Numbered from the stretch's first letter, positions 2,204 through 32,926 are shown. The stretch: 64,000 nt of DNA from Escherichia coli (GCF_024502345.1 NZ_JALDNN010000001.1), one strand, 5' to 3'. Notes: generated by a model not told the origin, from the letters alone. Translations and numbers: made by a program.

Positions 2204-2893
2204 ATGAAAAAAATTATCGCATTGATGTTGTTTTTGACATTCTTTGCCCACTCCAACGACTCCGAGCCTGGCAGCCAGTATTTAAAGGCAGCAGAGGCCG
2301 GGGACCGACGCGCACAATATTTTCTTGCCGACAGCTGGTTTAGCTCCGGCGATTTGAGCAAAGCCGAATATTGGGCACAGAAAGCCGCCGACAGCGGTGA
2401 TGCTGATGCCTGCGCGCTGCTGGCGCAGATCAAAATCACCAATCCGGTCAGTCTGGACTATCCACAAGCAAAAGTTCTTGCAGAGAAAGCGGCGCAAGCG
2501 GGCAGTAAAGAAGGTGAAGTAACGCTGGCGCATATTCTGGTAAATACTCAAGCGGGTAAACCGGATTATCCAAAGGCAATTTCGCTGTTAGAAAACGCCT
2601 CGGAAGATCTGGAGAACGACTCTGCCGTCGATGCCCAAATGCTGCTTGGTTTGATTTACGCCAACGGCGTGGGCATTAAGGCCGACGATGACAAGGCAAC
2701 CTGGTATTTCAAACGCAGCTCTGCAATTTCCCGAACCGGTTATTCCGAGTACTGGGCGGGAATGATGTTCTTAAACGGTGAGGAAGGTTTTATCGAGAAG
2801 AACAAACAAAAGGCGCTGCACTGGTTGAACCTGAGCTGTATGGAAGGGTTTGATACCGGGTGTGAAGAGTTTGAAAAATTAACCAACGGTTAA
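2204..2893 (+). CDS. yjcO: Sel1-like repeat protein of unknown function
   Basis: 229-aa ORF with N-terminal signal-like segment and repeated A-x-YxLA/AxxWxxKAA motifs; position between fdhF and gltP as in K-12. Confidence 0.8.
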   Translation: MKKIIALMLFLTFFAHSNDSEPGSQYLKAAEAGDRRAQYFLADSWFSSGDLSKAEYWAQKAADSGDADACALLAQIKITNPVSLDYPQAKVLAEKAAQAGSKEGEVTLAHILVNTQAGKPDYPKAISLLENASEDLENDSAVDAQMLLGLIYANGVGIKADDDKATWYFKRSSAISRTGYSEYWAGMMFLNGEEGFIEKNKQKALHWLNLSCMEGFDTGCEEFEKLTNG

Positions 2894-2894
2894 G

Positions 2895-3165
2895 GTAGGC
2901 CTGATAAGACGCGTTAAGCGTCGCATCAGGCGTTGATGTCGGATGCGGCGTAAACGCCTTATCCGACCTACAAAATCACGCTAAATCAGGCTATTGCGCT
3001 GTCTGGCGTAGGCCTGATAAGACGCGGCAAGCGTCGCATCAGGCATTGATGTCGGATGCGGCGTAAACGCCTTATCCGACCTACAAAATCACGCTAAATC
3101 AGGCTATTGCGCTGTCTGACGTAGGCCTGATAAGACGCACCAGCGTCGCATCAGGCATCCACACA
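2895..3165. repeat. REP/BIME cluster organised as a 113-bp tandem repeat (two full units plus a partial third)
   Basis: The unit gtaggcctgataagacgcg...gcgtcgcatcaggc...gccttatccgacctac recurs starting at 2895, 3008 and 3121 with only a few substitutions. Confidence 0.85.
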
Positions 3166-3195
3166 TTGCCGGGGGATAACCCCGGCAATCTTCAA

Positions 3196-4509
3196 TTATT
3201 GATCCGCAGTTTTATCAAATTTGCCCAGCACTTCACGCTCATAAGCCAGCGCCTTTTTGCGGTCAAATTTGTGTTCCCACTTGGCAATCACCAGCACCGC
3301 CAGCGCATTACCCACCACGTTCAGCGCAGTACGCGCCATGTCGAGGATACGGTCAACACCAGCAATAAACGCCAGACCTTCCAGCGGAATACCTACGCTA
3401 CCCAGCGTTGCCAGCAACACCACAAACGACACGCCCGGCACGCCAGCAATCCCTTTCGAGGTCACCATCAGCGTCAGCACCAGAATGATTTCCTGCCAGA
3501 TGGACAGGTCAATGCCATACAGCTGAGCGATGAAAATAGCGGCAATACTTTGATACAGCGTCGAACCATCAAGGTTAAAAGAGTAACCGGTCGGCACCAC
3601 GAAGCTGGTGATCGACGCCGGTGCTCCGTAGGCTTCCATCTTCTCAATAATTCGCGGCAGTACGCTTTCAGAGCTGGCAGTGGAGTACGCCAGAATCAGC
3701 TCATCTTTCAGAATACGAATCAGGATCCAGACGCTTAACCCGCACAGGCGCGCCACAATTCCCAGCACTACCAGCGCGAAAAACAGAATGGCGAAATGCA
3801 CCAGCAGCACCAGTTTCGCCAGTGGCCACAGAGAAGAGAAACCAAAGTTAGCCACCGTCACCGCAATCAGCGCAAACACACCCACCGGTGCATAACGCAT
3901 CACCATGTGAGTCACTTTAAACATGGTTTCAGAGATGGAGCGGAACACGGTCACCAGCGGTTCACGATGCGTCGCGGGCAGGGAGGAAAGCCCCAGACCA
4001 AACAGCACCGAGAAGAAGATGATCGGCAGCATTTCGCCTTTCGCCATCGACGCCACAATGTTCGTCGGCACCAGCGACAAAATCGTGCCCATAATGCCGT
4101 GGGAACTGCTTTGTACCGCTTCCGTAGTGCTCTGATATTTCGAGATATCGACGGTCGCCAGCTGCGACATATCCACCCCGGCACCGGGCTGGAAGACGTT
4201 CGCCAGAGTGATCCCCAAAATGATGGCGACGGTGGTGATCACCTCGAAGTAAATAATGGTTTTCGCGCCAATACGCCCGAGCTGTTTGGCATCACCCACA
4301 CCCGCGATACCCACCACCAGCGTGGAGATCACAATCGGCACAACAATCATTTTAATCAGATGGATGAAGATATCACCCGCCGGAGAGAGCAAATTGACGA
4401 CCAGCCAGTCGCGGCTGTCGCTATGGTAGTGCAGGTAGCTTCCCAGGAGAATGCCCAGCACCATAGCAAACAGAATCTGCCAGGCCAGGCTGAATTTTAT
4501 ACTTTTCAT
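3196..4509 (-). CDS. gltP: glutamate/aspartate:proton symporter
   Basis: 437-aa polytopic membrane protein (MKSIKFSLAWQILFAMVLG...) of the dicarboxylate/amino acid:cation symporter type; position matches K-12. Confidence 0.93.
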   Translation of the reverse strand: MKSIKFSLAWQILFAMVLGILLGSYLHYHSDSRDWLVVNLLSPAGDIFIHLIKMIVVPIVISTLVVGIAGVGDAKQLGRIGAKTIIYFEVITTVAIILGITLANVFQPGAGVDMSQLATVDISKYQSTTEAVQSSSHGIMGTILSLVPTNIVASMAKGEMLPIIFFSVLFGLGLSSLPATHREPLVTVFRSISETMFKVTHMVMRYAPVGVFALIAVTVANFGFSSLWPLAKLVLLVHFAILFFALVVLGIVARLCGLSVWILIRILKDELILAYSTASSESVLPRIIEKMEAYGAPASITSFVVPTGYSFNLDGSTLYQSIAAIFIAQLYGIDLSIWQEIILVLTLMVTSKGIAGVPGVSFVVLLATLGSVGIPLEGLAFIAGVDRILDMARTALNVVGNALAVLVIAKWEHKFDRKKALAYEREVLGKFDKTADQ

Positions 4510-5827: not shown

Positions 5828-7502
5828 CGCGCTTCTTCCCCCGCCATCCGCTTAACAATGCGCCCGCAATCATCAACAATCCTCCCCCCCAGATCCAGCG
5901 CACACCGCTTTGTACATACAAACGAAAAGCGTAACGATCCGCTCCGGTTTTTTCACCCATGACCGCATACCAGTCATGGATGCCGTTCCAGCGAATTGAC
6001 GGTTCCATCATTTGCTGACGACGTGCTTCGTAAAAACGCCGCTCCGGCATTAGTTCACCAATGCGTTGCTGATGGTCAAACAGTGCCACTATCGCTTTTT
6101 CGCTGGTGTAATTGCCTTTGGCTTGCAGATCGAGGCGCTCAAAACGGAAGGTGTATCCTGCCAGCGTCACCTGCTGACCCGGCTGTAAATTCAGGCTGAT
6201 CTCCTGACGGCTGACGCTGGAAACCACGATCCCCGCGGCAAATAACAGCACGCCCGCATGAGCTACCAGCGCCGGAAGCTGCACGCGTTTGCCAGAGACA
6301 AACGTCGCCAGCACAATCACCACCAGCATCAACAGGCCAAACGGTAACGTCGCGCGGTTAAAATACGGCGCGCCAACGGAGAGGCGTCCCCAGCCCAGCA
6401 GGCCGTAAATCATCGGATAAAGCGTTCCCACCAGCACGATCAGTAGCACTGCGCAAAACAGCAACAGCGTAGCGAGGATTAACATTTCCCGCGATAACCC
6501 CGAAAAACGCACCACCGCACCACCGTCCCGCGCTCGCCAGCCATACAGAGCCAGAGACGCAAGGCTAATCAGTGCAAACAGGCTGAACAACGGCACGGCG
6601 CGGACGTTATCCAGTGCGAACGCATGAACCGAAACCAGAATGCCAGAACGGACAATTAAGGTACCCAGTAGCGACAGCATCAGAGTTACTATCGCCAGCA
6701 ACAGCGACCAGTGGCGGAAAATCTCCCGCTGGCGTGTCAGGGACAAACTGTGCAGCAGCGCAGTGGCAGAAAGCCAGGGTAATAAAGAGGCGTTTTCCAC
6801 CGGATCCCAGAACCACCAGCCGCCCCAGCCCAGTTCGCAATAGGCCCACCAGGAACCGAGGATGATCCCCGCCGTTAATGCGCTCCAGCCAGGTAGTGCC
6901 CAGCGCCAACAAATTCTGGCGCAGGCACCATCAAACTCGCCGCGCAGTAAACTCGCCAGCGCCACGCTCGCCGCCACCATCAAACCGCCATAGCCAAGGT
7001 AAAGCAGCGGCGGATGAAAGATAAGACCGGGATGTTGCAGCATCGGATTGAGATCGCGGCCTTCGATTGCTGGTGGAAATATCCGCACGAAGGGATCGGA
7101 CCACAGCACCACAAACAGTAGCAGTGCGGCGAGCATGAGAGATAAAACGGCTAACGTCAGCGGAAATAGCGGATCGGTTTGCTGCCGATAATGCCAGGCA
7201 AACAGCGCGCTCCAGGCGGAAAGCAGCAGCACCCAAAGCAGCAGCGAACCTTCATGGCCGCCCCACACCGCTGCCAGCTTGAGTTCCCACGACAGCAGGC
7301 TATAGCTATGTTGCGCGACATAAATGACCGAGAAATCGCTGATGAGAAAACAATACGTCAGTACGCCAAAGGCGAGCAGCAGGAGCGCGAACTGCGCCAG
7401 AATGCCGATGCAAGTGAGTCGCATCATGGCAGGCCAGCGCAACCGCACTCCCGCAAAGGCCGTCAACGGGGTCAACACGTTGACCCCGAGACTTAACAAC
7501 AA
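5820..7502 (-). CDS. nrfE: CcmF-like heme lyase for NrfA (start codon uncertain)
   Basis: 560-aa polytopic membrane ORF with CcmF-like WGGxWFWD motif (GWGGWWFWDPVEN). Confidence 0.88.
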   Translation of the reverse strand: MLLSLGVNVLTPLTAFAGVRLRWPAMMRLTCIGILAQFALLLLAFGVLTYCFLISDFSVIYVAQHSYSLLSWELKLAAVWGGHEGSLLLWVLLLSAWSALFAWHYRQQTDPLFPLTLAVLSLMLAALLLFVVLWSDPFVRIFPPAIEGRDLNPMLQHPGLIFHPPLLYLGYGGLMVAASVALASLLRGEFDGACARICWRWALPGWSALTAGIILGSWWAYCELGWGGWWFWDPVENASLLPWLSATALLHSLSLTRQREIFRHWSLLLAIVTLMLSLLGTLIVRSGILVSVHAFALDNVRAVPLFSLFALISLASLALYGWRARDGGAVVRFSGLSREMLILATLLLFCAVLLIVLVGTLYPMIYGLLGWGRLSVGAPYFNRATLPFGLLMLVVIVLATFVSGKRVQLPALVAHAGVLLFAAGIVVSSVSRQEISLNLQPGQQVTLAGYTFRFERLDLQAKGNYTSEKAIVALFDHQQRIGELMPERRFYEARRQQMMEPSIRWNGIHDWYAVMGEKTGADRYAFRLYVQSGVRWIWGGGLLMIAGALLSGWRGKKRDE

Positions 7503-7557
7503 CGCCAGAAAACCGACTTCAGGAAGGAATACGTCCAGAAACCACCTCTTTTCTGGC

Positions 7558-8514
7558 TTACGCCACCGTCAACTGTCCGGCGTAGAGAATGAAAAAGCGC
7601 AGCATCAACACGCCGACCAGACTGGCCCCACACGCCGCCAGCACGGCAGGAATGCCGGAACTGCGATTGACCCACGGTTTGAGCAACATTGGCACAATCA
7701 GCCCCAGCCCGGCGACACCAAGCCAGAACCACCACGTCCAGAAACCGCCACCTAATGCCGCCACCAGCGCACGCACTTTACCGTCATCGCCCAGCGCCAG
7801 ACCGACAAAAAACGCCACCAGCAGGAAGATTTCACCCCATACCACGGGGATTTCCATACGGTGTACAAACTGCGCTTCCGTGGAATGCGGGTTACTGCGT
7901 TGGCGTATCGCCATGGCGATCAGCGCCACCGCCGCACCGGACGAGATGCCGGAGAAGAGGAACAGCACCGGCAGGATCGGGTTATTGAGGAACGGATACG
8001 ATTTCAGCGCCGACAGTAGAAAGCCGGTATAAGCCCCCAACAACACCGCCAACACCAGCATCAATGTTTCCAGTCCGCGATGAACGGGCGTCAGCAGGCT
8101 CAGAACCTTTTGCACGATCCCCAGCTTCGGCAACCAGCGTTGTTGCAGGGCAAGCAAATCATGTTCAAAGATTTTCGCCAGCCACAGCACCAGCACCACC
8201 ATGTAGAGCTGAAACAGCATCACCCCCATCGACATCACCGAGGTAAAACTGTAGTGGAACATCAGCTTCCAGAAGGTCCACGGTCTTGTCAGGTGGAAGA
8301 CGAGGATCAACAGACCGAGGATCACCGCGCCCGGCCCGACAATCAGCGTGGTGCGCAGCAACGTACTGTCTGCACCGCCCGCCTGCGGGTAGAAGCGACG
8401 TAACAGCACGGCCAGCGTCACCAGACCGGCAGAAATACCAATCAAAAACAGGTAGATGGCAATCGGCCAGTCCCACACCAGCGATTCAAAATGAAATGCG
8501 GAAGTCTGCGTCAT
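7558..8514 (-). CDS. nrfD: NrfD membrane quinol dehydrogenase subunit
   Basis: 318-aa polytopic membrane protein; 4-nt overlap with nrfC stop. Confidence 0.9.
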   Translation of the reverse strand: MTQTSAFHFESLVWDWPIAIYLFLIGISAGLVTLAVLLRRFYPQAGGADSTLLRTTLIVGPGAVILGLLILVFHLTRPWTFWKLMFHYSFTSVMSMGVMLFQLYMVVLVLWLAKIFEHDLLALQQRWLPKLGIVQKVLSLLTPVHRGLETLMLVLAVLLGAYTGFLLSALKSYPFLNNPILPVLFLFSGISSGAAVALIAMAIRQRSNPHSTEAQFVHRMEIPVVWGEIFLLVAFFVGLALGDDGKVRALVAALGGGFWTWWFWLGVAGLGLIVPMLLKPWVNRSSGIPAVLAACGASLVGVLMLRFFILYAGQLTVA

Positions 8515-32674: not shown

Positions 32675-32926
32675 GCGATGGTTCTCCAGGTTTACGGGCA
32701 GGTGGTTAAAACACAATAAACCGGAAGAAGGCGAAGATCGAGTGGATGTTCAGGAGCGAACGGCAATTAGCAACAGAGTGAGACTCATGACAAACGTACA
32801 TCCGCCAGAGGCACGACCTTTATAAGAGCATGAAAGAACATCAACTTATTGAATTTTTAGGATTTTATTGGCCGGATAAGGCATTCACGCCGCATCCGGC
32901 ACAGACAATCAAATATTACAGAACGA

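Follow-up and report, generated by a model that had tools for sequence, protein, structure and literature searches.

A BIME-2-type REP array of 113-bp units, variable in copy number, between yjcO and gltP of Escherichia coli

Introduction

The convergent genes yjcO and gltP of Escherichia coli are separated by a tandem array of REP sequences, and the locus raises the question of what class of element this array belongs to, how its number of units comes to differ between strains, and whether that number is of any consequence to the cell. We address this question here for one 64,000-nucleotide stretch of E. coli DNA (referred to as the window) and for the same locus in other genomes. The locus is already known, it belongs to a long-described class, and it has been used experimentally before. 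The BIME-2 class reportedly goes back to Gilson (1991) and Bachellier (1994, 1997 and 1999), and its length polymorphism is said to have been known since 1997. The IHF-binding REP pairs named BIME-1, RIB or RIP are likewise said to go back to Boccard and Prentki (1993) and Oppenheim (1993).

In the published scheme, a BIME-1 is made of z1 and y, occurs once and has a long L linker in which an IHF site is often found, a BIME-2 repeats z2 and y several times in tandem, its S linker being short and its flanks termed s, l or r, and atypical BIMEs are chimeras of the two (PMC3333891). BIME-2 have also been described as "two to twelve Y and Z2" with high length polymorphism (PMC1187871). The present locus itself enters the literature as "B319, a partial BIME located at gltP-yjcO of MG1655", a substrate of TnpA_REP (Ton-Hoang et al. 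2012, PMC3333891). This REP-associated Y1 transposase (RAYT) cuts B319 in vitro at four linker sites, and it has been proposed to create, diversify and amplify BIMEs, which it can also join (PMC3333891).

Results

Geometry of the array

Tandem Repeats Finder reports the array between yjcO and gltP as by far the strongest tandem array of the 64-kb window, with a period of 113, 2.3 copies, 95% matches, no indels and a score of 479. In a repeat search we found two full 113-nt copies (2895-3007 and 3008-3120) that are 96% identical to each other, followed by a third, partial copy in which the first 18 nt of the unit recur at 3121 and a 17-nt block at 3142; the array is also seen when the window is compared with itself by BLAST. 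An earlier note on this DNA had placed a 113-bp periodic array here between yjcO and gltP, and its coordinates, period and flanking genes are right as judged by Tandem Repeats Finder, the ORFs and RefSeq annotation. The check that it proposed, a comparison of the interval with itself, returns the 113-bp period with Tandem Repeats Finder and in the repeat search. It had counted "two and a half" units; their near-identity holds, and the count is corrected to 2.3, that is, two units and one extra REP.

The gap between yjcO and gltP is 302 bp long and the array takes up most of it, lying wholly between the two stop codons and thus being extragenic (Table 1). The yjcO stop codon TAA occupies 2891-2893 and the first REP starts only 1 nt beyond it. 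Consensus scans of 2894-3195 revealed no promoter-like sites and, on both strands, no canonical intrinsic terminator, and the ORFs inside the array are chance ones of 20-31 aa.

Table 1. Features of the yjcO-gltP region, in coordinates of the window.
Feature	Position	Strand	Evidence
yjcO CDS, Sel1-repeat protein	2204..2893	+	ORF and RefSeq annotation of matching genomes
Whole tandem array, five REPs, 2.3 x 113-bp units	2895..3158		Tandem Repeats Finder, repeat search, self-BLAST
z2-type REP no. 1, begins GTAG on + strand	2895..2931	-	pattern scan, fold
Short head-to-head linker GTTGAT, S type	2932..2937		direct reading
y-type REP no. 1, GTCGGAT...ATCCGACCTAC	2938..2971	+	pattern scan, fold
36-nt tail-to-tail linker no. 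1	2972..3007	+	motif search, fold
z2-type REP no. 2	3008..3044	-	pattern scan
Short head-to-head linker ATTGAT	3045..3050		direct reading
y-type REP no. 2	3051..3084	+	pattern scan
36-nt linker no. 2, one mismatch against no. 1	3085..3120	+	motif search
Terminal z2-type REP no. 3, closes the array	3121..3156	-	pattern scan
Rfam RF02564 (naRNA4) match, y-linker-z2 pair	2898..2968	-	75.2 bits, gathering score 59.5
Second Rfam RF02564 (naRNA4) match	3011..3081	-	79 bits, gathering score 59.5
gltP CDS, glutamate/aspartate:proton symporter	3196..4509	-	ORF and RefSeq annotation of matching genomes

Anatomy of the 113-bp unit

A pattern scan recovers five REPs in the array in the orientations -,+,-,+,-, each about 35 nt long, imperfectly palindromic, furnished with a GTAG/CTAC tail and able to fold into a hairpin, and the description of the locus as a higher-order tandem repeat with a pair of inverted REPs in each unit is therefore correct. 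Read on the + strand, the unit consists of a z2-type REP that starts with GTAG (GTAGGCCTGATAAGACGC-loop-GCGTCGCATCAGGC), a 6-nt head-to-head linker, a y-type REP (GTCGGATGCGGCGTAAACGCCTTATCCGACCTAC) and a 36-nt tail-to-tail linker (AAAATCACGCTAAATCAGGCTATTGCGCTGTCTGGC). As single-stranded DNA the z2 REP is predicted to form a hairpin of 7+5 bp (z = -6.5) and the y REP a hairpin as well (z = -4.0), and the 36-nt linker is predicted to be unstructured (z = 0.1). For RNA, the predicted fold has z = -9.8 when the + strand is read and -11.2 when the - strand is read, so that a transcript of either strand would be very strongly structured. Relative to the canonical y copies elsewhere in the window (GCCGGAT...ATCCGGC), the y REP of the array carries a paired change from C-G to T-A, and because the two changed positions pair with each other the stem is preserved. 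The 36-nt linker occurs twice in the window, both times in the array, with 0 occurrences expected from shuffled sequence. Past the array, 6 nt downstream of the gltP stop codon, there is in addition a 10-bp GC-rich hairpin (ATTGCCGGGG/CCCCGGCAAT, 3165-3189), which is kept in all alleles with a varying loop, and in which a terminator scan of either strand found no passing U-tract.

Within each linker we found a match to the IHF consensus: AATCAGGCTATTG at 2984-2996 in linker no. 1 is a perfect match to WATCARNNNNTTR, and the consensus recurs at 3097-3109 in linker no. 2. The window as a whole holds 15 such matches against 4.8 expected, two of them being those in the array.

Other REPs and elements of the window

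Sixteen of the 18 REP pattern hits in the window are true REPs. The remaining two, at 23130 and 51825, are false and fall inside the two copies of a 768-bp element (22879-23646 and 51341-52108) that we take to be IS1; these copies are 99.3% identical, inverted and about 28 kb apart, and recombination between them could invert the interval that they enclose. The further REP clusters listed in the earlier note all proved real, namely 13612-13688 (two REPs), 45758-45854 (two), 50343-50467 (three), 55348-55470 (three, the third degenerate) and 60372-60407 (one), and its list is extended by a single y-like REP on the - strand at 32867-32900. The cluster at 45758-45854 is BIME-1-like, its y/z1-type REP being joined through a 36-nt tail-to-tail linker (GATAATCTGCAAATTCAATAAATTGCGATCTGTTGT) to an inverted REP that is degenerate; this linker includes a near-consensus IHF site, equals the linker of the yjcO-gltP array in length and placement, and shares 19 of 36 positions with it in an ungapped alignment by eye.

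Two RNA elements were also picked up by Rfam elsewhere in the window. The SECIS_2 match at 375-429 (87 bits), just upstream of the ORF 431-2110, is the selenocysteine insertion element of fdhF (formate dehydrogenase H), which accounts for the late ORF start of this gene at 431. A match to sraL, an Hfq-binding sRNA, lies on the + strand at 20925-21065 (150.9 bits).

Relation to known classes of elements

The pattern scan and the anatomy of the unit support the identification of a REP/BIME array between yjcO and gltP, as the earlier note had it. Y and Z2 alternate in orientation, their arms are identical to the units named Y and Z2 in REP325 by Qian 2015 (PMC4550694), the head-to-head S linker is 6 nt long, and the array counts five PUs here and 11 in MG1655. 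Moreover, it is tandem, extragenic at the 3' ends of genes, and polymorphic in length at one conserved locus (0 to about 8 units between isolates). By composition and behaviour, as far as sequence can tell, the array is thus of the BIME-2 type. However, it departs from BIME-2 in that its tail-to-tail linker is long (36 nt), specific to the locus and furnished with a perfect IHF consensus, a trait usually ascribed to the L linker of BIME-1, and owing to this linker the array might be called an "atypical" BIME under Bachellier's scheme. A likeness to BIME-1 is seen in the two inverted REPs that surround a tail-to-tail linker of about 36 nt with an IHF consensus, but where BIME-1 combine z1 with y in a single copy, here y is paired with z2 in tandem repeats.

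We also compared the array with REP325. Both have the same z2 and y arms in the order z2-linker-y-linker, both are tandem (about six copies in REP325), and both exceed the gathering threshold of Rfam RF02564. REP325 differs, however, in its 100-bp unit and in its linkers of 13 and 17 nt, which are unrelated to the 6- and 36-nt linkers of the array, and it sits between yjdM and yjdN; we therefore rejected the identification of the array as REP325. The two RF02564 matches in the array span the full model and lie on the gltP-sense strand (Table 1), but three ordinary REP pairs of the window (at 13615, 50394 and 55400) are matched as well, so that the model in effect recognises any y-z2 pair. A CRISPR-like array was rejected in turn, since the "spacers" would be linkers that are identical to one another and the repeats are ordinary REPs.

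Copy number across E. coli genomes

A query made of the two 600-bp flanks alone (2294-2893 and 3159-3758) matched 5,421 of 5,426 complete E. coli genomes, and the distances between the flanks form an exact series with steps of 113 bp. In a spread sample of 59 genomes the commonest insert was 40 bp long and comprised the terminal REP without any full unit (23 genomes). One unit was present in three genomes with an insert of 153 bp and in three of O157:H7 with an insert of 140 bp, in which the unit has a 12-bp deletion; two units, as in the window, gave 266 bp (seven genomes), three units 379 bp (five), four units 492 bp (six) and six units 718 bp (a single genome). A second series has inserts of 110, 451, 562, 676 and 904 bp, corresponding to 1, 4, 5, 6 and 8 units in 1, 6, 1, 2 and 1 genomes, respectively. 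About 40% of this sample therefore has no full unit and the others have 1 to 8. The earlier note's expectation that copy number varies between strains is borne out, with 0 to about 8 units measured across complete genomes, it being understood that individual values in public assemblies may include errors of collapse or expansion.

Because allele lengths differ by whole units in both series, the array behaves as a VNTR. It shares with VNTRs or minisatellites of the kind used in MLVA a copy-number polymorphism that is in register and fast relative to point substitutions, and differs from the typical VNTR in that its unit is itself made of REPs that resemble mobile elements; no MLVA scheme that uses an E. 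coli unit of 113 bp came up in a search of the literature.

With a 52-nt probe that has the linker at its centre, matches were obtained in 2,590 of the 5,426 genomes, at 1-6 places per genome (median 2), which means that about half of the genomes are without a matching full unit. All loci fetched for its matches were gltP-yjcO, and the linker is therefore specific to this locus. REPs as such are highly repeated in the genome: with the 1.1-kb query, the median E. coli genome showed 11 matching places.

Sixteen alleles were dissected base by base. In series A, which includes the window, K-12, O157, O121, O43 and others, the structure is [z2-S-y-linker]n followed by a terminal z2; in series B, found in B2-type strains such as U13A and MCJCHV-1, the first z2 is degenerate and the array ends inside the last linker. 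In zero-unit alleles (e.g. O43 RM10042) the terminal z2 REP is all that remains of the array. Some of the propagated z2 units in U13A and MCJCHV-1 carry changes that break the stem. The units alternate between two subtypes and this alternation is itself repeated, from which we conclude that amplification has proceeded in steps of one or two units.

The linker's IHF-like core also differs between alleles. In O157:H7 F1273 the 12-bp deletion in the single full unit (AATCAGGCTATT) removes exactly the core of the IHF consensus, and the y REP of this strain has two further changes; in B2-type alleles the first base of the consensus is altered. Judged from these alleles, the IHF-like core of the linker is not conserved.

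Among the 5,426 complete genomes, the best match to the window reaches 99.7% over the 1.2-kb flanks and 99.5% over the 1.1-kb region. The strain from which the window comes is therefore not among them, and in combination with the two IS1-like copies this might indicate a lineage that is Shigella-like or has otherwise escaped sampling. The 60 genomes with the closest flanks are all 99.7% identical, and among them n is 0 in 52, 2 in one and 3 in seven; since n differs where the flanks are equally similar, the turnover of units outpaces the accumulation of point substitutions. In NZ_CP104613.1, a complete genome independent of the window, we found two units and a terminal REP as well, with identical unit variants. 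This agreement, together with the in-register series formed by thousands of genomes, argues that the array is not an artefact of assembly.

K-12 sublines and apparent mutations

In K-12 MG1655 (NC_000913.3) the gap between the genes is 641 bp and the array has 5.3 copies (2336-2934 in the fetched locus). Unit number differs even between K-12 sublines: MC1061 has n=2, W3110 and MG1655 CP009685 have n=4, and NC_000913.3 and MG1655 CP169634 have n=5, the extra unit of the n=5 allele being an exact duplicate of its neighbour. We also found that unit 1 of the MG1655 reference is only 111 nt long, with a CG missing from its y REP. This is the difference reported between lab stocks and the reference as "+CG/+GC gltP/yjcO intergenic (+586/+56), position 4,296,380" (PMC4330922, PMC8611074). 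The "yjcO-gltP insertion" reported in 34 of 35 isolates (PMC6120903) is probably the same +CG difference.

Further calls at this locus can be read in terms of differences between units. A "C->T at 4,296,060, frequency 0.33" has been reported (PMC4330922), and this position is the G/A site of the S linker that varies between units. Intergenic "mutations" at 10-33% in populations that were absent from clones (PMC12956098) are compatible with reads from paralogous units having been mis-assigned. Fractional "mutations" in resequencing and evolution studies would thus arise because reads from near-identical units map to the wrong unit, and recognising such mis-mapping at the array avoids over-reading mutation calls of this kind.

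The K-12 allele and TnpA_REP

B319, the K-12 allele, is orthologous to the array of the window, having the same locus, the same unit and the same cleavage site, and differs in that MG1655 has five units and a terminal REP with a first REP starting ATAG, where the window has two units, GTAG and other loop variants. The site B319(1), cut between GACC and TACA, is a weak TnpA_REP cleavage site (PMC3333891). This GACC/TACA is the tail of the y REP and is present in every unit of the window, as are the GTAG tetranucleotides, and on these motifs the array reads as a TnpA_REP substrate.

Outside E. coli, Escherichia sp. E1V33 has an array of five units at the same locus (7365-7930 of the fetched locus), which ends with a complete linker and no terminal z2; what it lacks relative to K-12 is exactly one 37-nt z2 flanked by GGC. 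In E. whittamii (5991-6218 of the fetched locus) the array starts with a y REP, and its unit is 117 bp long through a 4-nt insertion in the short linker. From their sequence, these boundary differences appear to be gains or losses of single REPs and not of whole units.

Discussion

Taken together, the anatomy of the unit and its behaviour across genomes suggest that the shared 3' region of yjcO and gltP holds a BIME-2-type array of z2 and y REPs, joined by 6-nt and 36-nt linkers and repeated in tandem, a reading to which we assign a probability of about 0.88. Changes of one unit (113 bp) or of two (about 226 bp) are the signature of unequal recombination or replication slippage, and units would then be gained and lost by such events between the 113-bp repeats. 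The boundary differences between species are at the level of single REPs, and cutting and joining by TnpA_REP could explain them.

What the array might do can be considered for RNA and for DNA. It lies 3' of both genes, neither of which has a canonical intrinsic terminator, and for this reason read-through RNA of yjcO and gltP is expected to fold into REP hairpins; from the predicted folds these would be very stable, would block 3' exonucleases and would attenuate read-through into the opposite gene. REP hairpins have been reported to stabilise upstream mRNA and to attenuate transcription (PMC3333891, PMC2817692). Additional effects may come through translation. Ribosomes are reported to stall where a REP lies no more than 15 nt from a stop codon (Liang 2015, in the form summarised in PMC12306157), and with only 1 nt between the yjcO stop and the first REP, this REP would by the same rule probably reduce the translation of YjcO. 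On the DNA, y REPs may recruit DNA gyrase and linkers may recruit IHF where convergent transcription builds positive supercoils. A subset of BIME-2 is known to be cut by gyrase, for the most part at y REPs and irrespective of transcription (PMC6379681); the text supplements of the gyrase Topo-seq study make no mention of gltP or yjcO. That arrays of this kind can act as gyrase or IHF sites or as mRNA stabilisers, as the earlier note remarked, is correct general knowledge of BIMEs (PMC3333891, PMC6379681, PMC2817692), and in the present array such putative roles are supported at the level of sequence, by the IHF consensus of the linker and by the strong predicted hairpins. Since a full unit is missing from some 40-50% of strains, the cell can dispense with the multi-copy state, which is probably close to neutral. 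It is very improbable, in our judgement, that unit number is non-neutral by virtue of each unit adding an HU-binding, naRNA4-like hairpin pair to gltP-sense read-through RNA together with an IHF or gyrase site; if this were true, local chromosome architecture or gltP/yjcO expression would be heritably variable, with n=2, 4 and 5 among K-12 stocks.

The IHF consensus invites the alternative that the array is an architectural, IHF-binding element of the RIB/RIP (BIME-1) kind, in which the number of units would set the number of IHF bends. Each linker does carry AATCAGGCTATTG, a perfect WATCARNNNNTTR, in a 36-nt, tail-to-tail and unstructured setting like that of the linker at 45758-45854, and the L linkers of BIME-1 frequently hold an IHF site (PMC3333891). 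However, BIME-1 pair z1 with y once, whereas the array pairs z2 with y in tandem, the core of the consensus is deleted in O157:H7 and altered in B2-type alleles, and the linker is absent from about 40-50% of genomes; we hold this alternative to be unlikely. The gltP-yjcO locus is unmentioned in the IHF GeF-seq paper. More improbable again is a cluster of genes for naRNA4-like nucleoid-associated ncRNAs that would interact with HU and link cruciforms to one another, as has been reported for REP325. Along the full length of RF02564 the two complete pairs reach 75-79 bits, the gathering score being 59.5, the architecture with z2-linker-y-linker in tandem resembles that of REP325, and in naRNA4 it is the secondary structure that matters and not the sequence (Qian 2015, PMC4550694). 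The model, though, in effect matches any y-z2 pair, including three ordinary pairs in the window, and the array has no promoter-like site, is absent from a large share of strains, and lies elsewhere than naRNA4 itself, which maps to yjdM-yjdN. An HU or nucleoid function has been demonstrated only for products of REP325 (Qian 2015, PMC4550694).

Rapid change in unit number, even among K-12 sublines, could also suggest a selected contingency locus, akin to phase variation, that tunes the expression of yjcO or gltP, and the first REP does adjoin the yjcO stop codon in a region where "mutations" recur in evolution studies (PMC12956098, PMC6120903). Yet within series A the REP next to the stop codon is unchanged at any n, the reported "mutations" are explained by the +CG reference difference and by differences between paralogous units, and there is no known association with a phenotype, which leaves the idea of a contingency locus barely credible. 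As for the repeat or its copy number being a product of assembly, short-read assembly easily collapses arrays of 113-bp units that are nearly identical, and MG1655 CP009685 (n=4) does disagree with the reference (n=5). But NZ_CP104613.1 shares the n=2 allele of the window down to its unit variants, the 113-bp series is exact over thousands of genomes, each K-12 state is found in several independent assemblies, and a stray K-12 contig (see below) contains the beta-beta junction specific to the n=5 allele. We give this explanation virtually no weight, and as to the existence of the repeat it is effectively refuted.

As a BIME-2-type array, the locus illustrates behaviour already known for this class and reveals no new principle. 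Among the REP arrays of E. coli it ranks with the larger and less stable ones, and it could serve as a cheap PCR length marker for the identity of strains and stocks. What we add is descriptive, namely the allele spectrum over 5,426 genomes, the two boundary series, the differences between K-12 sublines, and a locus-specific linker whose IHF consensus is not conserved.

One further observation concerns the public databases. A 240-bp contig with 0.53x coverage in an assembly of Pyxidicoccus caerfyrddinensis (NZ_JAAIYA010000177.1) consists wholly of K-12-type units of the array. Its units are the adjacent identical pair specific to the five-unit MG1655 allele, and the contig is almost certainly contamination from E. 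coli K-12.
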